DNA from: a virus
Lineage: Duplodnaviria > Caudoviricetes
DNA length: 29,855 nt
Strand: one strand, 5' to 3'
IMG/VR virus record: IMGVR_UViG_3300016467_000162
Span: 1 to 29,855 of that record
Shown here: piece by piece, positions 97 through 24,902 of the stretch
How positions within the stretch are numbered: the stretch's first letter is position 1
How the letters are laid out: each line of letters starts with the position of its first letter
Program-made: the position numbers and the translations under genes
The notes under the pieces: generated by a model
Database searches by the model: none
Told to the model about the DNA's origin: nothing
Seen by the model: the letters and a program-made list of their open reading frames with translations, nothing else

Positions 97-409
97 TTTC
101 TTTCGGCTTTAATTTTTCCAAAATCGCTTCTTTATCTTTTTGAGTAGTAATGGTAATTTTTTTATTTAACCTACTTAAAATATCAGTCCATAAAGGTAAT
201 ATTTCTCTCGGCTTTTTTTGATGCTTTTTCTCAACTTGCGTATTTAAAACATAAGACATTAAAGTCCTTGTTCTATCCCACTCGTTTGCATCTTGTTTCC
301 TTTTATAAATAAAATATCTATAATAATCTACAAAAGTCATATCCCAAAAAATATGCGGCAACAAACCCAAGTCCATTACCGCACAATCCAAGATATCATC
401 CCAAGTTAC
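86..409 (-). CDS. Tail assembly chaperone, frameshifted C-terminal part (gpT-like)
   Basis: Lies between the chaperone and tape measure; -1 frame is open from the slippery A-run (VTWDDILDCAVMDLGLLPHIFWDMT). Confidence 0.8.
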   Translation of the reverse strand, partial: VTWDDILDCAVMDLGLLPHIFWDMTFVDYYRYFIYKRKQDANEWDRTRTLMSYVLNTQVEKKHQKKPREILPLWTDILSRLNKKITITTQKDKEAILEKLKPKENGK

Positions 410-777
410 TTTTTTTTTTCTCCTTGTTGCTCATTAGACATCGCTTTGAATGCTTTTATCATTTCCTGCGTAATCTTCAAACAACTTTCGGTAAAGCACT
501 TAATAACTTGTAATTGACCTTCATAACTTAAGTCATCTACCCATTCAACCACATCTTCATAAGTGAAGTCTATGATTAAACTTTTACCTCTGTAATATCC
601 AGTCAAACCTGAAAAGACTAAATCAGCTACCATTTGTAACTGACTATAATCTTCTCCTATTTCTTTAATATTACCGATATCACTACCACTAATCTTTGTA
701 TAAGTCTCTAACGCATAGTTAGAAAATTTCAATTGTTTTACTTCCCCATTTAGAGTAAGTTCAAGTATTCCGTTCAT
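406..777 (-). CDS. Tail assembly chaperone (gpG-like)
   Basis: Follows the tail-tube genes; ends GEKKK on GAA AAA AAA AAG TAA. Confidence 0.8.
   Translation of the reverse strand: MNGILELTLNGEVKQLKFSNYALETYTKISGSDIGNIKEIGEDYSQLQMVADLVFSGLTGYYRGKSLIIDFTYEDVVEWVDDLSYEGQLQVIKCFTESCLKITQEMIKAFKAMSNEQQGEKKK
409..420 (-). other. Programmed -1 frameshift slippery site (G-A10-G, contains A AAA AAG)
   Basis: Ten-T run at 410-419 directly before the stop; -1 frame joins the 86..391 ORF. Confidence 0.8.
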
Positions 778-794
778 AGTTTGTTTAGTTTAAT

Positions 795-1199
795 TTATGC
801 AATTGTAGCAAATGTAGGTGCGCCTGTTCCTGTAAACTCAATTGAGTAAGTAGTAACATCTTCCATAGGTGCTGAAACTTCGCAAGAAGAAATATAAGCA
901 GTTTGTGAAACCGATTTATCTCCTGTTGTCATATCAGTCCAAATAATAGCAACACTTGCTCTGTTATTGTATGCAGTGAAAATATCTGCTAAATCTTTGT
1001 TAGTAGCTTGAAAATCTGCAAGACCTTCTGCTGAGTAAGTAATATCTCTTAAACCTGGCATTACTTCTTTCCAACCTGCTGATTCTTTAGAAGTTGTTTC
1101 AAATAAGTCCTGATTCATAGACATTGTAACATTGGTTAATTCTGCTAATTGCGTTCCATCCATTTTTAAGATTTGCGCTGTGCCGTTGTAAACTGCCAT
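795..1199 (-). CDS. Major tail tube protein (TP901-1/Phage_tail_2-like), copy A
   Basis: ETTSKESAGWKEVMPGLR motif and C-terminal YSIEFTGTG; position before the chaperones. Confidence 0.85.
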   Translation of the reverse strand: MAVYNGTAQILKMDGTQLAELTNVTMSMNQDLFETTSKESAGWKEVMPGLRDITYSAEGLADFQATNKDLADIFTAYNNRASVAIIWTDMTTGDKSVSQTAYISSCEVSAPMEDVTTYSIEFTGTGAPTFATIA

Positions 1200-6695: not shown

Positions 6696-7826
6696 TTAAA
6701 CATTCCCTAAATCAGCGTAAATCGCAGAAGTAGGCAACATAAGATTAATCGCTTCGTAGCACTCGATACGAGCAGTTACTAAGTTCTTGATGAAGTTGTC
6801 TCCAGACTCATAAGAGAAAGTAACATTTAATCCTTCAACTTCAACTCTTTCTAAGTAGTCTCTATCAAAGATTAATACTTTATCATCAGTTACCCAAGAA
6901 GCCTCGAATACAGGAACTCCGTAGATAGTTAATCCACCAACACCGTTAACGATAACCGCACCAGCACCAGCGTAGTAACCTTTACCGAAAGTAGCGATAA
7001 TTAATCTTGCCATTTGAGCAGGAGAAACTAAAGCATAAGAAGCGTTAAAGTTAGCAGTCTTTTGGTTTCCAATCAATTGGATGATTTCTTCTACATCGTT
7101 AGTAGCAGTTACGGTAGTTGAACCAGTAGCAGCACCTGAAACAGTTGAGAAGAAAGAAGCATTTTCAGCTTTGAAGAAGTCTCTAATCATCATACGAGTC
7201 AAAGTTTGCTCGATAAATGGTAAAGATTTCATCATTTGCTTAGAGAAAGTTGCGTAACCAGCGATATAAGCGTTTACAGTCTTAACTTCTGTTAAGTCGT
7301 AATCAATTTGACCTTTAGCTGCACCTTCAGTTTGAGCTGCGATAGCACCTTCTGAACCACTCTCTTTGTAAGTTACATAAGTACCAGTAGCACTTGAAAC
7401 TGTGTTAATCAAATCTCTGAAGTTTAATTTCTGAGAAGGTAAGATAGCTTGAATAGGGCTGTAAGTAGCAACTGAATCACCAGTTAAGTTAGCACCTAAA
7501 GTCATATTACCAACTGCTTTCAAGTTCATAGTGAATGAACCACCTGCTGATTTCAATTCTTTTTCAGCGATTGACATATTGTTGTCTAAACCTTCAGCTA
7601 ATTGCTCTCCGATAGATTTAGTTTCCATAGCTTTAGCAGCACTCTTACGAGATACTTCTTCTGCTTGTCTGTCTAATTCGTCTTTTACTGCTTTGATTTC
7701 AGCCTTAACTGCATCAATATTTTTTTCTACCATCGTAGAAACTTCGTTTTTTACGCTAACTAAAGCGTTTGCATTTGCATCAAACTTTGCGTTGATGTCA
7801 TTTGCTAAGTTTTTAATTTCTTCCAT
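6696..7826 (-). CDS. Major capsid protein, HK97 fold, with coiled-coil N-terminal (delta-like) domain
   Basis: Follows the prohead protease; EGAAKGQID and FIKNLVTARIECY motifs. Confidence 0.92.
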   Translation of the reverse strand: MEEIKNLANDINAKFDANANALVSVKNEVSTMVEKNIDAVKAEIKAVKDELDRQAEEVSRKSAAKAMETKSIGEQLAEGLDNNMSIAEKELKSAGGSFTMNLKAVGNMTLGANLTGDSVATYSPIQAILPSQKLNFRDLINTVSSATGTYVTYKESGSEGAIAAQTEGAAKGQIDYDLTEVKTVNAYIAGYATFSKQMMKSLPFIEQTLTRMMIRDFFKAENASFFSTVSGAATGSTTVTATNDVEEIIQLIGNQKTANFNASYALVSPAQMARLIIATFGKGYYAGAGAVIVNGVGGLTIYGVPVFEASWVTDDKVLIFDRDYLERVEVEGLNVTFSYESGDNFIKNLVTARIECYEAINLMLPTSAIYADLGNV

Positions 7827-7830
7827 TTTT

Positions 7831-8532
7831 TTAAAGATTTAAAAGTTGTCTAAATTGTTTTATTTCGTTTATCTTATTGTCCTCTTTCGGCTCTTGAACT
7901 GGTGTAGTGATTTTACTCGGCTCTTCAGTTTTCGCAAGTGAAACAAGTTTTAATAATTCAAATTCTATCAAACCGAATGTTTCATCAGTATAGCTACCAT
8001 TTTTAATAGCCTTTACTAAAGTTTTAATTCTGTCTTCTCTTTCTTCTGCTGACTTAAAGCCAGTAAAAGGTGTATTAGGGTTAGCGCCAAAAGTAACTGC
8101 TGAACCTTCCCAAAGTTTTACCTCAAAGATTTGCTCTACTTCTTCGCCTTCTGTTTGTGTTTCGATTGATTTGATTACTTGGTAACCAATAGAATGCTGA
8201 GTAATTACTCCATCTCTATAAAGTTTTAAAGCATCCTGTCCGTAAGTTGTATCGCTCATTTTAGCCTCAAAGTACAAACCAAAATTATCTTCTCTTAATA
8301 CCATTAACTTACCCAAAGGTTTGCAGGTATCGTGTTGCCACAAGTAAGCAATCTCAGGCTTTGATGAATCTGGACCTCTCTCTGCGATAGTCTTAGTAAA
8401 TGCACCTGGCATTATTACATCTCCGTCTAAGTCAATATTATTGAATTTAGAAAAGTAACCTGTTACTATTCCTGTTGCGACATCTAAGTCTTGAATAGTT
8501 GCATCGTAATTTTTGAAACTTATATTCTTCAT
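7831..8532 (-). CDS. Prohead maturation protease (HK97 family)
   Basis: GYFSKFNNIDLDGDVIMPGAF, LWQHD, HSIGY, LWEGSAVTFGANP. Confidence 0.93.
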   Translation of the reverse strand: MKNISFKNYDATIQDLDVATGIVTGYFSKFNNIDLDGDVIMPGAFTKTIAERGPDSSKPEIAYLWQHDTCKPLGKLMVLREDNFGLYFEAKMSDTTYGQDALKLYRDGVITQHSIGYQVIKSIETQTEGEEVEQIFEVKLWEGSAVTFGANPNTPFTGFKSAEEREDRIKTLVKAIKNGSYTDETFGLIEFELLKLVSLAKTEEPSKITTPVQEPKEDNKINEIKQFRQLLNL

Positions 8533-8554
8533 AAGCGATTATTTTAGAGTGTTT

Positions 8555-8584
8555 AAAAAAGAGTGAGTAGTTACCTACCCACCC
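8555..8584 (-). terminator. Intrinsic terminator-like hairpin
   Basis: GGGUGGGUAG-GUAA-CUACUCACUC (10 bp, two G-U pairs) followed by U6. Confidence 0.8.
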
Positions 8585-8607
8585 TAAAACCAAACACCAA
8601 ACTATGT
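8555..8607 (-). ncRNA. Candidate ~53-nt small RNA or attenuated leader
   Basis: Bounded by a TATCTTTG promoter and a GNRA-capped terminator; 5' arm is antisense to phage start-codon regions. Confidence 0.5.
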
Positions 8608-8609
8608 AG

Positions 8610-8636
8610 TACAAAGATACTAACTTTTTTAGCAAT
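8610..8636 (-). promoter_or_regulatory. Promoter with TATCTTTG -7 element (8612-8619)
   Basis: 26/27 identical to 6613-6639. Confidence 0.8.
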
Positions 8637-9415
8637 TATTTATATATGATATTATTTTCCTTATCTAATTTAGCTTTTGTAACCATTGTGCATTTGCAAT
8701 TAGCATTATTTTCTATTCCTCCTGCTGGGTCGCCTGGATGTTTCATCATCGTACCTTGTGCATTAAACTTCTCGTTTAGGTCAATTGTTTTACCGCTTAA
8801 AGCAACGTGCCAATCTCTCGGCATCTTAGGGTGGTCGTGAATCCAAGTCTTTTCCATAACAATAGGCATCAATTCAGACTGAGTAAACTTAGCAGCATTT
8901 GTAACCATTACTGATTCCGTTCTTGCTATTAGTCTTGCTCTTGTCTTAGACATCCCTACTTCCTTAACTAATCTACGCTCTGCACCTCTAAAGCCTTCGT
9001 TATTTTCTAAAGCATCCGTAAAAGCCTTTTGTATTCTCTTTAAACTTGTGTCGTTAATATCTTTAATGTGCTGACCGCCAATGGTAGCAAAGTATTCTTT
9101 TAATGCTGCATCCATTATTGGATTCTCAAAGCCTACACCGATTGTCGCTTGTGCTGGTAAGTTAGCCTTAAGCCATTTAACATAACCTCGTGATTGTTTA
9201 TTCCAAGAAGTATTATAAAAAGTTTGCATAGCCTCTGCAATAGGAACACCTGTGTATAACATCCCTGAAAGCTGATAGCTAAATGCAACCGATTCAGATT
9301 CCCTTAAAGCATCTAAAATAGGCTGAATAGATTGTTTCAAAGCCTTAGAGAATAAACGATAGCCGTAAACTTCTAAGTACTTTTGTAGTTTTGTGTCAAA
9401 TTCTTCTTGTGTCAT
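8636..9415 (-). CDS. Minor head protein (Mu gpF / SPP1 gp7-like)
   Basis: RARLIARTES, KTW, RDWH, HPGDP...NCKC motifs; follows portal. Confidence 0.88.
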   Translation of the reverse strand: MTQEEFDTKLQKYLEVYGYRLFSKALKQSIQPILDALRESESVAFSYQLSGMLYTGVPIAEAMQTFYNTSWNKQSRGYVKWLKANLPAQATIGVGFENPIMDAALKEYFATIGGQHIKDINDTSLKRIQKAFTDALENNEGFRGAERRLVKEVGMSKTRARLIARTESVMVTNAAKFTQSELMPIVMEKTWIHDHPKMPRDWHVALSGKTIDLNEKFNAQGTMMKHPGDPAGGIENNANCKCTMVTKAKLDKENNIIYK

Positions 9416-17119: not shown

Positions 17120-17782
17120 TTAATCAATTATTTCTTCAATATCTTCTTGTTCAGGAATCCAAGCCATTGAAAATTCTTTATTTGCAAACATTTCGGTTAA
17201 TCCGCTTATTTGTGTTAATCTTAAAACTTCATCTCTATCCATACCTAATTCTTTAGATATTTTTTCATCACTCCAATTTCTTCTTTTTAAATCAACTACA
17301 ATATCTGACATAGATTCTACTTTGTGTTTCCCTCTTGCTCTATTATGCCTAATAGTAGATGCAACTCTATCATTTTGACCTTTTTGAGATTCCCTAATTG
17401 TAACTACTGGTAAATACCCGTGAACCCTACTTTGTATATCTTCACATTCTTTACCAACTCTATTTCTATGGAATCCATCAATAACTTCTCTTGTGCCATT
17501 ATTATTATCCATTGAAACAATAGGTTGAGTATATCCATCGTTTGCTATTGATAATCTTAATAATTCCATTTCAGGTGGTGCTACTGAATTTGGATTATAA
17601 TCATTTGCAATTACAGTATTATTTTTAACCCATATAACACAATCTACTGGTTCTGTATTAAATGGAGATATTTCGTGCAACATTAATTTAATTTCATTAA
17701 TCAAATCAACTTTTTCGTCAATTGTTAAATCAACAATTTTATTAATAATTTCTTTTTGGTGGTTAATTAATATATTTTTCAT
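17120..17782 (-). CDS. ParB/Srx-fold protein (IbrB/YbdM-like)
   Basis: ANDYNPNSVAPPEMELL, DGYTQPIV, IDGFHR, STIRHNRARGKH, C-terminal HTH. Confidence 0.9.
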   Translation of the reverse strand: MKNILINHQKEIINKIVDLTIDEKVDLINEIKLMLHEISPFNTEPVDCVIWVKNNTVIANDYNPNSVAPPEMELLRLSIANDGYTQPIVSMDNNNGTREVIDGFHRNRVGKECEDIQSRVHGYLPVVTIRESQKGQNDRVASTIRHNRARGKHKVESMSDIVVDLKRRNWSDEKISKELGMDRDEVLRLTQISGLTEMFANKEFSMAWIPEQEDIEEIID

Positions 17783-17785
17783 AGT

Positions 17786-19003
17786 TTAATTTTCTAAAAA
17801 TTTATTTTCGGTTCTTTGTTTTTTCTTTAATTCTAAATACTTTTTATAAGCATCTGTTTTATGCTGAGTAAATCCTAATCCTTTACACCAAAAATCATTT
17901 CTTAATAAAGACTTACATATTCTTCTCCAACTTGGTGCTAATTTTTCAGATTCTAAAATATAAGGGGCTTCATCAGGTATTCCTTTTGAATATCCTCTTT
18001 CTTCCCACCATTTTATAAAAGTATAAATTTTGTTTAGATAATGTTCTTTTGTTATATCAGGTATAGAATTTAAAAATAGCATTGCAAATGATTCCCAAGT
18101 ATGGTTTTTAGGTTTTGTTATTTTATTATATCCTGTTATAGAACCACTTTCATTAATATACAATGCGCCTGAATTTGCTCCATTTACTCTTGCAACAACT
18201 TTTGCCCAAGTTTCAGGTTCTATTAAATGGAATAACCATAATCCTCTTCTTTGGTCATCTCCATATGGTTGACAAATTCTTTGTTGATGTATAGATACGC
18301 CAGCTTTAAACATTAATTCATAAAGTTGATTAAATCTTTTATTTTCATTTTTTGAATGGTAAATCCAAATATCTTCAGTAGTCCAATCATAAATTGGATA
18401 AACATTAAATACACTATTTGTAACTTTTGTAGTATAAACTTTTTTATCTAAAGTTATTTTAGTTTTTGAACTTATTGTTCTATATCTATTTAATGATTCA
18501 TCAGAACGAATACCTACTAAACAAGCAGTTAATTTACCTTCAGAATACCATTCCCCAAATTCAGGCACAAATTCTTCAAATTCCATACCATCTCTAAAAA
18601 ATGGAAAATAATTTAAATCAGTTATTGCTTTACTTGGTTGTTCTCTTATCCAATTTTCTTTTTGTTCAATATCCCAGCATTTCCAAAATGGTTCATAAAC
18701 TGAAACAGCATTTCTTAAATGAATAGGTAAACAAACCCAGTACAAATCAATATAATCTTTATATTCTTCTATACAATGTTCAATATGTTCTATTGTAAAT
18801 TTATATTGTCCTTCTAAATCTACTATAAGTAACCCTATTTTTTTATTTCTTTTTTTTACTTCATCCATTACTAAATGAAGCATTACGGTAGAATCTTTAC
18901 CAGCACTAAAAGATAAATAAGTTTTTTCAAATCTATCTAAAGTCCATTTGATACGTTCTATTGAAGCATCAAATACATTCTTATCTAATCTTATTTTAGG
19001 CAT
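17786..19003 (-). CDS. PAPS-reductase-like protein with DUF3440 (IbrA/YbdN-like)
   Basis: PP-loop SFSAGKDS, GIRSDESLNR, YPIYDW, QRICQPYGDDQ, PSWRRICK. Confidence 0.9.
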   Translation of the reverse strand: MPKIRLDKNVFDASIERIKWTLDRFEKTYLSFSAGKDSTVMLHLVMDEVKKRNKKIGLLIVDLEGQYKFTIEHIEHCIEEYKDYIDLYWVCLPIHLRNAVSVYEPFWKCWDIEQKENWIREQPSKAITDLNYFPFFRDGMEFEEFVPEFGEWYSEGKLTACLVGIRSDESLNRYRTISSKTKITLDKKVYTTKVTNSVFNVYPIYDWTTEDIWIYHSKNENKRFNQLYELMFKAGVSIHQQRICQPYGDDQRRGLWLFHLIEPETWAKVVARVNGANSGALYINESGSITGYNKITKPKNHTWESFAMLFLNSIPDITKEHYLNKIYTFIKWWEERGYSKGIPDEAPYILESEKLAPSWRRICKSLLRNDFWCKGLGFTQHKTDAYKKYLELKKKQRTENKFLEN

Positions 19004-19370
19004 TTTGTTCGTGTTTTTGTTTCCAAATATTTAAAATATCATTAGCAATTTTATTGCTTCTATCTTGAACATTTTTTTCAAGTTTATTCCAAATTTCCAT
19101 AGTTACTTTATTTGGTATATTTGAATATAAACAACACGCACCTTGACCGATATAAGCAATTTTATTTAAAGATTCATTTGTTAAATTATGTTCACAGGAA
19201 TATTTCCATTCATTAATAACCCTTAACATATTTTCTGTTGTTTTAATTTCACAATTAAACATTTCAATACCTTTAAGAATTAATAATTCTTTGTTTTCTC
19301 CTGAACAATTTTCATAAAATCCAGCTTTGTAGTCTTCCCAAAGCCAATAAGGGTGATAAATTCGTTTCAT
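18996..19370 (-). CDS. Hypothetical protein, first gene of the PAPS-reductase/ParB cassette
   Basis: Overlaps the next gene; aromatic motif HPYWLWEDYKAGFY and WKYSCEHNLTN. Confidence 0.7.
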   Translation of the reverse strand: MKRIYHPYWLWEDYKAGFYENCSGENKELLILKGIEMFNCEIKTTENMLRVINEWKYSCEHNLTNESLNKIAYIGQGACCLYSNIPNKVTMEIWNKLEKNVQDRSNKIANDILNIWKQKHEQNA

Positions 19371-19400
19371 AGTTTGTTTTGGTTTAGTTTGCTAAGATAT

Positions 19401-19691
19401 TTATAATCTTCTATATTCAAAGTATTTTTCTAATCTTTTTGATAGGGCATATTTACTAACTCCATACTTTTCAGCGTAGTGTTGCATACTTAACCCATTA
19501 TCAAGAAAGTCTTGTAAAAATATAGGGAATACTTTATCAGCAGTAATACTTGCCTTTTTAATATGGTTATGCTTAGTTTTAACCCCTCTAATTTTAAATA
19601 CTTCTCTAATCTTTTTTTCGGAAATATTATACTTCTTACTTAAATCGCTTATTGTTATGTTATTCTTTCTGTAATCTTCTAAAAAATCCAT
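19401..19691 (-). CDS. Putative DNA-binding protein with two HTH-like repeats
   Basis: ITISDLSKKYNISEKKI and LSMQHYAEKYGVSKYAL. Confidence 0.6.
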   Translation of the reverse strand: MDFLEDYRKNNITISDLSKKYNISEKKIREVFKIRGVKTKHNHIKKASITADKVFPIFLQDFLDNGLSMQHYAEKYGVSKYALSKRLEKYFEYRRL

Positions 19692-20489: not shown

Positions 20490-21119
20490 TTAAAGGTTTA
20501 TAATTCTTGTTCCTATTCTTGCTTGTATTTCTTGGTCGTAATTTTGAAGCCAGGCTCTACATTGTTCAACTTTATTGATGATTTCTTGCTCAATAGATTC
20601 ATCTCGTTTAAACTCGTAGCTTACCCAGCGTTCAAAATCCTCTAAATGTGAGTAGCTTATTTTTGTTCCATAATTAGCAGCAGCAGGGGTGTCTCCTAAA
20701 TAATAGAATAGTGTAGCAAATGGTTTATTGCATAACATCATATAGCCTCTCAACTGCCATTCGTAGTCGGTGTTTAACTCTAATGCTGAATCCAATAAGG
20801 TCTTTCTATTCCAAGCACATTTCGTATCTATAATAGAGTTCTCAAGGATAACATCAGGAGTTCCTACTAACCATTCGTTTGTGTAAATATCTTCATTTTT
20901 ATAGGCTTTGATACCTCCGTATAAAACTTTAGATGCAAACTCAATCGCTTCATCTTCCAATAAAATACCTTTGGTTAAATATTTTGAAATTAATTCTTCT
21001 TTATCTCCAGAATACCATTCTTTGAGATAAGTTATACAAGTTTGCGATAGTTCGCCTGGCTTTTTAGACTTGCTCATTATTTTCCCTAACGAGGATGGTC
21101 TTGCTTTAAAGTATTTCAT
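20490..21119 (-). CDS. Lambda-exonuclease/YqaJ-like exonuclease
   Basis: KGILLEDEAI, GTPD, IIDTKC, YEWQLRGYM. Confidence 0.85.
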   Translation of the reverse strand: MKYFKARPSSLGKIMSKSKKPGELSQTCITYLKEWYSGDKEELISKYLTKGILLEDEAIEFASKVLYGGIKAYKNEDIYTNEWLVGTPDVILENSIIDTKCAWNRKTLLDSALELNTDYEWQLRGYMMLCNKPFATLFYYLGDTPAAANYGTKISYSHLEDFERWVSYEFKRDESIEQEIINKVEQCRAWLQNYDQEIQARIGTRIINL

Positions 21120-21669
21120 TTGGGTTCGTGGTTAAAAGTCTTAAAGTATTTTCATCCATTGTATATCTCTCTTGGATAGCTTTTAGATTCTTGTTGTCTT
21201 TTAGGTAACCTGCTCTGCACTTGTCAAATAATTCTGTACCTACTTTCAAAATTGGCTTAGCCATTCTATCAGCTACTGCTTGTGCAGCATCGTGAACATT
21301 CGTAGCATCCGCATCCTTAGTGTCATCAATAAGGAATAAACCATTAAGAGCATATTTCCGAGCATAACTGGAACTCGCACCGAACGACTGCGCAATATCC
21401 ATACCTTTTCTGTTAGGGTCAATCCCAGCAGAAGCCGATGAATTAAATTCTTTACCATCTTTGTCTATAAATTGAATGTAAGTTTCGCAGAAGATAATAC
21501 CAGCTTTTTCTTGAATGTTATCCGATATTGTCATCGTGCATTCGTACTTTAAAAGTAATGGTTTTACTGCTTCTAATATATCTTCCGTAGAACGATACTT
21601 GTACTTTCCAAAGGAATTGTACTGATTTTTTGGTGCTTTTAGCTCCGATTGGATTTTTAATAATGACAT
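21106..21669 (-). CDS. erf: ERF-family single-strand annealing protein
   Basis: YKYRSTEDILEAVKPLL and GASSSYARKYAL. Confidence 0.9.
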   Translation of the reverse strand: MSLLKIQSELKAPKNQYNSFGKYKYRSTEDILEAVKPLLLKYECTMTISDNIQEKAGIIFCETYIQFIDKDGKEFNSSASAGIDPNRKGMDIAQSFGASSSYARKYALNGLFLIDDTKDADATNVHDAAQAVADRMAKPILKVGTELFDKCRAGYLKDNKNLKAIQERYTMDENTLRLLTTNPNEIL

Positions 21670-21701
21670 AATTTTCTTGTTTTGGTTTTTAAAGATACTA
21701 T

Positions 21702-22744: not shown

Positions 22745-23176
22745 TTAAAGTTTTTTTAGGATTAAGTAAATAGCAAGGATTGCACCCAACAATAGCAGGA
22801 TTTCATTCTTACAAGGGTAAGTCTCCTTAATAGTAGCCGTTTTTTCTACCTTTATAGCTTTATTTTCTACCTTATCGATTTTAAGGCTTTTTAAGGCTTT
22901 ATCTTCTTTGATGTGCCTCTTTACCTTAATAGACTTTAGTTTTAGCTTGTAATCGCCTCTAATGGCTTGAGAAGGACTAATAAGTGGTGTTCCTACTGTA
23001 TCAAACTCGTAAATGACTTCTTCGGTTGTTTCTACCTTGCCTGAATCGGTTAATACCTCAACTTGCTCAATCTTATTTACCACAGAATCAACTTTAGTTA
23101 CTTCTACCAGTTTTTTAGATTTACAAGAAGATAGTAAAATTACTACCGATAAGAATATTAGCCTTTTGGTGTCCAT
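22745..23176 (-). CDS. Lipoprotein with C-terminal transmembrane helix (unimolecular spanin-like)
   Basis: Signal peptide with lipobox LSSC; C-terminal ILLLLGAILAIYLILKKL. Confidence 0.65.
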   Translation of the reverse strand: MDTKRLIFLSVVILLSSCKSKKLVEVTKVDSVVNKIEQVEVLTDSGKVETTEEVIYEFDTVGTPLISPSQAIRGDYKLKLKSIKVKRHIKEDKALKSLKIDKVENKAIKVEKTATIKETYPCKNEILLLLGAILAIYLILKKL

Positions 23177-23364
23177 AGTTTAATTAGTTTCTTTTGTCTT
23201 TCTAACCTGCAATCAGCCTTGCACATTGAGCAATAAACCTTAGTACCTGATGAGATGTATTCCTTAGCGCAACACTCTGAAATAGTCAAAGGGTTTACCT
23301 GCTCTATTTCTATTGTAGCTTCTTCGCTTAAGGATTCTTTTATTTCTTTTGATTTCTTTGCCAT
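23158..23364 (-). CDS. Small Cys-rich (zinc-ribbon-like) protein
   Basis: SECC...YCSMCKADC. Confidence 0.55.
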   Translation of the reverse strand: MAKKSKEIKESLSEEATIEIEQVNPLTISECCAKEYISSGTKVYCSMCKADCRLERQKKLIKLWTPKG

Positions 23365-24025: not shown

Positions 24026-24860
24026 ATAAAACTCCGTTATAAACACATTTATAATCAATTATTGCGTGTGGTTGAGCAAAGAACAAAACCTTATCGCCAT
24101 CTATTTTAAAAGTAACCTCTAAAAATCCTTGACACCAATCTGCTATCTTTCCTGTTGGTAGATACTCGACTGCTTCCATTAACCTCGTACATCCAACCTC
24201 AAACCAAGCGTTTATATTGTGCCTATTGCGAATGTATCGCATACCTAATCTGTGTGTATGACCTGTACATCCTGAACCCCAGTATTCGATTATATTTTTC
24301 TCACTTGCGTTCTTAGTTAAACTTAATCCGTGAGTAATATCAAAAATATCAAAGTAAGTAAATACATCCGTTGGGTCGTAAATCATATCATTCTCAGCAA
24401 GGTGTAACATCTCCTCAAACTTTGTAGATTCAAAATGCTTATAAAGAATAGCTAATCTTGCAAGTTGACCTTTAGATAATAAAAATGGTTTTGTTACTCG
24501 CTCGTCGTGGTTTCCTGTACGAATACGAATCTTAGCATCCGTTGAAAGTCTTAATGGTTTTAATATTTGCTCCTCTGTATATCTAAATTCCTCAACTTCG
24601 TTATAATCTTTAAGGATTCCCTCCATATAAAGTTTATTCGTATGCTTAGATACAAAAGGTAAATCTACTATATCTCCGTTGATACAGACTTCGTCAAATT
24701 TATTATGTTGTAGAATGTTATTGATAACTCTCAAGCATTTCAAATCTGCTAACCAACCGTGAGGGTCAGAGAATACAAATAACTTATAAGTCTTTTTATC
24801 CGTAAGTTTTTTAAGCTGGTATTGATTATACTCAGTCTCGGTTAGTCTTGGTCTGTACAT
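24015..24860 (-). CDS. Calcineurin-like metallophosphoesterase
   Basis: SDPH, GDIVD, GNHD, THG and GHTH motifs. Confidence 0.9.
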   Translation of the reverse strand: MYRPRLTETEYNQYQLKKLTDKKTYKLFVFSDPHGWLADLKCLRVINNILQHNKFDEVCINGDIVDLPFVSKHTNKLYMEGILKDYNEVEEFRYTEEQILKPLRLSTDAKIRIRTGNHDERVTKPFLLSKGQLARLAILYKHFESTKFEEMLHLAENDMIYDPTDVFTYFDIFDITHGLSLTKNASEKNIIEYWGSGCTGHTHRLGMRYIRNRHNINAWFEVGCTRLMEAVEYLPTGKIADWCQGFLEVTFKIDGDKVLFFAQPHAIIDYKCVYNGVLYGE

Positions 24861-24902
24861 AGTTTTTTTTGTCGAAATTACTAATTATTTTAGTAAATGC
24901 AA

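Follow-up and report, generated by a model that had tools for sequence, protein, structure and literature searches.

The window analysed here, i.e., the whole stretch of 29,855 bases, is a complete phage record with direct terminal repeats in which all real genes lie on the minus strand, arranged in blocks for an HK97-type head and tail, for recombination and replication (Erf, exonuclease, and helicase), and for lysis. The locus of interest lies between a gpF-like head morphogenesis gene (8636..9415, minus strand; phrog_2468, E 4.7e-34), whose stop codon ends at 8636, and the gene of an HK97-type prohead protease (7831..8532, minus strand; phrog_80, E 3.6e-47), whose ATG is at 8532 and which is the first gene that read-through would meet. 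The major capsid protein follows (6696..7826, minus strand; PF05065, E 1.2e-13), with a terminator of its own at 6677-6642, and the Erf ssDNA-annealing gene lies in the recombination block (21106-21669, minus strand; PF04404, E 1.1e-34). The 39 and 25 proteins scanned (PHROG and Pfam) include none that was named as an integrase or as Q-, N-, or NusG-like, with many small ORFs being without a match. Among cultured phages, Cellulophaga phi10:1 and Flavobacterium 11b come closest in their capsid (33-34%), and blastn against GenBank phages returned short matches only, with 80% query coverage in none among 40 records. From the TAnnTTTG boxes, the A-rich starts, and these nearest cultured capsid relatives we infer a Bacteroidota host, and the clade bearing the unit described below consists of small aquatic phages, likely of Bacteroidota. 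The TAnnTTTG boxes alone are not above chance in the window (46 found vs 49.8 expected).

The gap between the two head genes holds a compact unit on the minus strand. A Bacteroidota sigma-A type -7 box, TATCTTTG (8612..8619), precedes a U/G-rich, single-stranded 5' arm of 22 nt, ACAUAGUUUGGUGUUUGGUUUU (8586..8607), which begins with ACAUAG, and therein an anti-AUG, and is the predicted pairing region; next comes an intrinsic terminator (8555..8585) with a 10-11 bp hairpin (stem 8585-8560, GTAA loop) and U6 (six T at 8560-8555), from which 22 nt remain to the protease ATG. With the box assumed at -12..-5, the spacing given in PMC9723704, the RNA is predicted to begin at A8607. The fold of the predicted 53-nt RNA has an energy of -16.6 kcal/mol (z -3.96), which none of 200 shuffles equals, and it leaves the arm mostly unpaired; promoter box, anti-AUG arm, hairpin, and U6 are all present as the sequence-only reading had described them. 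Past the U-tract, AAACAC(U) (8548..8554, minus strand) is the predicted partner of the arm's GUGUUU in the read-through RNA only, in which the first 9-10 nt of the arm would be left free. A -33 element was considered and rejected, the TTG being only 13 nt before the box and not invariant. No Rfam family reached threshold in 8300-8900, where an L20 leader (20.4 of 58.7 bits, terminator-driven) and SAM-II (16.1 of 44) scored below their gathering thresholds. The RNA-library evidence consists of assembled contigs from 6 of 18 public runs, which cannot show start, end, or strand: runs X1 and X7 show the even cover that DNA would give, runs X5, X11, and X14 have no contig cover over the unit, and run X10 has one contig (8243-8594, depth 5), which bridges the U-tract and ends at 8594. 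Elsewhere in the window genome, a near-copy of the unit's promoter (6640-6612) lies past the capsid terminator, 4 nt ahead of the ATG of the leaderless ORF 6610, and the capsid terminator itself has GGGTAGGT in common with the unit's hairpin.

We estimated the conservation of the unit in 91 records (the window, 72 protease loci, and 18 metagenome loci), some of which are one contig present in two collections. The full pattern was matched by 80 of them, two of these twice, giving 82 matches and 57 distinct strings; the 11 records without a match comprise five that are cut off, four distant relatives, the locus L573 discussed below, and one unrelated match. The unit is present twice per record in L007 and L057, possibly as assembly repeats. 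The arm has not a single substitution in the 57 distinct copies, its only variation being the length of one U-run (four U in 48 copies, three in seven, and five in two), U6 is kept in all 57, and the box is invariant in 22 of 22 aligned copies. The spacers that flank the unit vary (6 and 16 forms), and so do third codon positions in the adjoining protease gene (25 of the first 30; mean difference 0.28). To judge from these alignments, the arm is under strong purifying selection. The hairpin occurs in five forms, all of them pairing-competent, and the GNRA cap that had been read from the window holds there (GTAA) but not across copies, since a 6-nt loop replaces it in 28 of the 57. The motif after the U-tract is AAACAC in 55 copies and AAACGC in two. 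In 22 hand-picked sequences the outer nine pairs of the terminator are 100% paired (one pair with two-sided and three with one-sided changes) and the GUGUUU-AAACAC extension helix is 99.4% paired, with one-sided changes only; 113 of 500 shuffles reached the observed pair counts, so that structure is not separated from relatedness by this measure. Each of the three complete relatives has one CATAGTTTGGTG, and a covariance model of the unit (R1) has one match in the window.

Comparison of the upstream regions of the protease gene places the unit between a promoter and its gene. In distant relatives (protease 45-69% identical), the gpF-protease gap contains nothing but a promoter box, a few bases ahead of the ATG. 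TAnnTTT[GA] occurs in the last 35 nt of 45 of 52 distinct outgroup regions, none of which has the arm, whereas the arm is present in all 30 clade regions, without any box in that same interval, in agreement with the earlier statement that no other promoter precedes the protease; in L310 a nearly identical promoter stands directly ahead of the protease without the unit. By position, then, the unit's box is the ancestral protease-capsid promoter. Because distant relatives have the bare promoter where the clade always has the arm, arm and terminator appear to have been inserted into the protease-capsid mRNA leader in the clade. The sequence-only reading had posed a small RNA and an attenuated leader as alternatives; the two do not exclude one another, and the leader reading holds as well, because the box is that ancestral promoter and the clade has no other box before the protease. 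With an insertion behind the promoter, the protease-capsid mRNA must arise largely by read-through, unless boxes within the protease gene, which occur at chance frequency (31 and 29 of 44 genes), serve the capsid gene, as they could. Before the protease ATG (8535-8517, minus strand), a conserved CGCTT is predicted to pair with early coding bases and so to bury the start codon in a small hairpin.

L573 (580-713) offers a natural replacement. Its promoter, arm, and terminator are unchanged, though the downstream leader and the protease have been replaced: the leader lacks the AAACAC partner, and the protease, 68% identical, is preceded by a TAAATTTA box of its own at 13 nt from the ATG. An insert in the form of a GIY-YIG gene was rejected here, as there is only a 20-codon MIGIYK remnant ahead of the diverged protease. 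This single case suggests that the unit is kept for its own sake, although a recent swap would look alike; a scan with the L573 protease gave no further variant of this type.

We then compared the arm with the gene starts of the window, with duplex energies calculated by RNAduplex, which ignores target accessibility. The motif AAACTATG is found at five of 46 starts (777, 17782, 19370, 23176, and 24860) vs one of 620 other minus-strand ATGs, and five of the eight AACCAAA on the minus strand are within 30 nt of a start (19370, 21669, 22294, 22633, and 23750). All complementarities named by the earlier reading (18996..19370, 406..777, 24857-24865, 17780-17787, and the AACCAAA leaders of 21669, 22633, and 23750) are present, and the starts at 23176, 20058, and 22294 are complementary as well. 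The strongest duplex in the genome is with the leader and start of the accessory ORF 18996-19370 (19368..19392, minus strand; -18.0 kcal/mol); weaker ones are predicted, in the same orientation, with those of ORF 406-777 (775..800; -16.8), the second conserved predicted target, of Erf (21666..21691; -16.2 here), the best conserved one, and of ORF 22745-23176 (23174..23195; -15.7), a moderate one. The window's Erf leader has drifted (AAATT before the ATG) and ranks below 19370, 20058, and 777. Capsid, portal, and most tail genes pair poorly with the arm, and 24860 and 23750 pair weakly. The six best duplexes with the 46 curated starts average -16.2 kcal/mol vs -10.6 for shuffled arms (0 of 300 as good), so the pairing that had been proposed stands out from the shuffled controls; shuffles that keep ACAU reach -11.9 (0 of 300 as good) and those that keep the first 9 nt reach -14.2 (16 of 300 as good). 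The arm also prefers its own starts to those of other Erf-bearing phages (top six -16.2 vs -13.8, P about 0.006, 47 called starts), where starts outside the window come from a simple first-ATG caller and some are wrong.

Several of these genes merit description. ORF 406-777, probably a tail assembly chaperone gene, sits after the major tail genes, and its Atlas neighbours at 0.89-0.90 are a lead only. ORF 22745-23176 (minus strand) has a lipoprotein-like N-terminus and a hydrophobic C-terminus without a PHROG or Pfam match, an anatomy that we take to be u-spanin-like. The accessory module 17120-19370 (minus strand) comprises three genes (an unknown of 124 aa, a PAPS-reductase/DUF3440, and a ParB-like gene), which presumably resemble IbrA/IbrB; it is 98% identical in the complete genome G306 and was not found in G307 and G308. 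A small HTH gene lies beside it at 19401-19691. A TAnnTTTG box stands 3-9 nt ahead of several late-gene starts (2068, 3828, 6610, 10749, and 14108, minus strand); such late genes, apparently leaderless or nearly so, would be insensitive to an anti-leader RNA.

Across the clade, the main conserved predicted target is the Erf leader, followed by the gene at 777. The Erf leader is laid out as AAAACCAAAAC(A), then two or three unpaired bases, and then AAACTATG, and would pair with the arm in two blocks, the longer of up to 12 bases and the shorter of up to 8. With the majority arm, all ten distinct clade contexts of Erf give -19.0 to -23.9 kcal/mol vs a median of -8.2 in the outgroup (n=53; four at -15 or better), where 15 Erf loci (L375-L389) are assigned to the clade by an Erf identity of 73-87%, L387 being the only one whose record was seen to contain the unit. 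Among the 54, 49, and 48 starts of three further complete genomes with both unit and targets, Erf ranks first, first, and second, and the homologue of gene 777 is among the top three in each. The start of gene 777 carries AAACTATG in 10 of 12 distinct clade contexts and that of 23176 in four of seven, while the accessory gene 18996-19370 is present in one of the three other complete genomes. Of the target list drawn up from the window, 777 has therefore held up as conserved, whereas 17782 and 19370 belong to the accessory module and 24860 and 23750 are weak, and Erf (21669), which had been listed as a minor match, is yet the best conserved.

An exact two-block match (a minimum of 8 nt at the AUG and of 10 nt upstream, a definition chosen after the Erf match was seen) occurs in 6 of 550 clade contexts vs 1 of 1869 in the outgroup, and the sole outgroup match is in L390, a locus with clade-type neighbouring genes and leaders. 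In L390 the clade-type Erf leader belongs to an HNH-like gene, and the Erf gene itself follows a second, related leader. If energy is the sole measure, -19 with the majority arm is attained by 8 of 1198 starts of the Erf outgroup. Enrichment over several targets is modest in the three further genomes (top-six P 0.052, 0.19, and 0.045), and the conservation of the Erf leader (0.80 vs 0.43-0.93 for 18 other leaders) is not unusual. The pentamer that most often precedes the ATG is, in the clade, AAACT (34 of 512 distinct contexts and 14 of 121 families); two outgroups have it in 3 of 675 and in 20 of 1161. A cluster of AAACTATG starts occurs in an unrelated complete phage, G413, in which a matching promoter-CATAGTTT unit was not found, so the 8-mer may reflect a host start preference.

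Erf-bearing phages often have units of promoter, U-rich arm, and terminator close to their early genes, and many of these units contain a CAT (L391, L395, L399, L401, L406, L411, L426, L431, L436, L438, L451, L452, and L454). Of 18 tests of such look-alikes, made on partial loci of other phages, two gave a preference for own over foreign starts, and some of the look-alikes are evidently no more than normal 3' ends. In a second, unrelated group of phages (L085:2998-3065; also L081, L148, L151, and L185), a promoter, a CATAGTTT-led U-rich arm, and a terminator lie within the early region, and in two partial records no perfect own target was found for this arm. A search of the genome collection with promoter and seed returned 103 scattered matches across unrelated taxa, the unit architecture being absent from the 12 listed matches that are U-rich or bear a hairpin, and viral scans with looser patterns (9 and 13 of 64 parts) gave mostly chance matches among those listed. 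The genome scan and covariance model R1 (151 Bacteroidota genomes) gave no chromosomal homologue; one weak R1 match reads as an ordinary terminator region.

No description of the unit was found in searches of the open-access literature. The C4 antisense RNA of P1/P7 (RF01695) is a phage RNA that represses the phage's own genes by pairing at translation starts, and it is a structured, processed RNA for lysogeny control. The Rfam hits in 8300-8900 include no C4 match, and the unit is a 5' arm with a terminator in a genome without an integrase match. Among the closest known systems are FopS and GibS of Bacteroides thetaiotaomicron. Six FopS (RF04319) loci share with the unit a sigma-A box, a short single-stranded 5' arm, CAU near the start, a U/G-rich anti-leader, and an intrinsic terminator. 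Nevertheless, the FopS covariance model has no match in 8300-8900 at E<=5 and a 9.1-bit match elsewhere in the genome against a cut-off of 56, and the seed R1/R1' differs in sequence (CATGGTATTAGATTTAAGGTT at FopS loci, CATAGTTTGGTGTTTGGTTTT in the unit), CAU and U/G richness being what is common. FopS is a multicopy chromosomal family of about 65-70 nt, whereas the unit is a single copy in a phage, with a predicted RNA of 53 nt, its seat is an operon leader, and its predicted targets are the phage's own genes. According to PMC11697453, FopS represses translation by pairing at start regions and targets SusC and outer-membrane transporter genes; RbpB binding is a further trait of the family. 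StxS, of the lambda PR'-tR' type, is a short RNA made by termination just past the late-gene promoter which has gained a trans-regulatory role (PMC7547250), and it is Hfq-bound, RNase E-processed, and under Q antitermination in a temperate phage. StxS and the unit are alike in having a terminator directly after the promoter of structural genes, but the unit is a clade-specific insertion, and a sequence relation is not expected.

We consider it on balance probable that the capsid promoter gives rise to a terminated RNA that silences Erf and a few other mRNAs of the phage, as well as a read-through protease-capsid mRNA. The promoter would thus yield two RNAs, one of ~53 bases by partial termination and one that continues into protease and capsid. 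The free 5' arm of the short RNA would pair over the leader and start codon of Erf, and of a few other own mRNAs, and may block their translation by occlusion, as FopS has been shown to do experimentally (PMC11697453), while in the read-through mRNA part of the arm would be folded away. Recombination and replication genes might in this manner be damped as head synthesis is switched on. Translation initiation in Flavobacterium relies on adenines upstream of the start and on low structure (PMC6847099), so covering about -20 to +3 should inhibit it. A stricter version, which we regard as possible yet rather doubtful, is an early-to-late switch made of RNA only, in which a FopS-like RNA was inserted behind the capsid promoter, each firing of which would give either capsid mRNA or a repressor of the recombination/replication operon headed by Erf, with the read-through form hiding its own seed.

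The same anatomy could act in cis only, the promoter-proximal terminator and the 5' structure setting the level, timing, or stability of the protease-capsid mRNA, with the short RNA as a by-product and the matches as a result of U-rich meeting A-rich composition. The ancestral position of the promoter and the lack of another box before the protease suit this explanation, as do the U/G-rich stretches common before terminators in these phages and hosts, the bridging of the U-tract by the contig of run X10 (8243-8594, depth 5), and the conserved extension helix, which forms solely on read-through and could explain the conservation of GUGUUU without any target. We nonetheless judge it unlikely: the first 9-10 nt and GGUUUU are unpaired in both folds yet never change, L573 retains the arm without its helix partner, composition-matched shuffles and foreign starts pair worse, and a cis antiterminator formed from the arm is impossible since the arm has a single C. 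If the short RNA were real but selected for action on host mRNAs (e.g., receptor or defence genes), the phage leaders would match it through a shared start style. An invariant arm suits a target outside a fast-changing phage genome, and the layout is like that of FopS, which acts on outer-membrane transporters and has been seen in one phage (PMC11697453). Against this, the two-block target gave 39 matches vs 37 for the control in 301 Bacteroidota genomes and is thus not a general Bacteroidota start, no chromosomal homologue emerged from the genome scan or the covariance model, and the exact two-block match is confined to genes of the clade. Host targeting is accordingly quite improbable in our view, and a broad action on host starts through the full arm, which the sequence-only reading had raised as a possibility, is not supported by these genomes.

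Two further explanations dispense with a regulatory RNA of this kind. The AAAACCAAAAC-type motif might be a protein-binding site, acting as a DNA operator that can be read either way round or as an RNA decoy; it would stand just behind early promoters and, in inverted form, behind that of the capsid genes. It does come after a TATCTTTA-like box at Erf, with similar boxes at other early genes, and the genome has the small HTH gene mentioned above, but the start codon is part of the match, in register, a terminator closes the unit, and the spacing between the blocks shifts by 1-2 nt in arm and leaders, which fits RNA pairing better than an operator; we hold a protein site to be very unlikely. 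A functionless inverted gene-start remnant or a plus-strand minigene, brought to mind by the resemblance of the arm, read on the plus strand, to a leader followed by ATG, seems scarcely credible. What the plus strand would encode changes from relative to relative, with anything from Met-stop to unrelated peptides in three frames, no plus-strand TAnnTTTG box is nearby, and the arm's apparent purifying selection is strong; its invariance largely refutes the remnant.

The question addressed is how small Bacteroidota phages with seemingly only host-type promoters order early and late expression. The unit would represent a compact mechanism with a traceable origin, from bare-promoter relatives and an insert-bearing clade to one natural swap, that of L573, which separates the RNA from the downstream leader. 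If the favoured mechanism is true, start-region silencing of the FopS/GibS type would extend from Bacteroides chromosomes to the self-regulation of phages, and the unit would be a second case, after StxS, of a terminated RNA from a late promoter with a role in trans.
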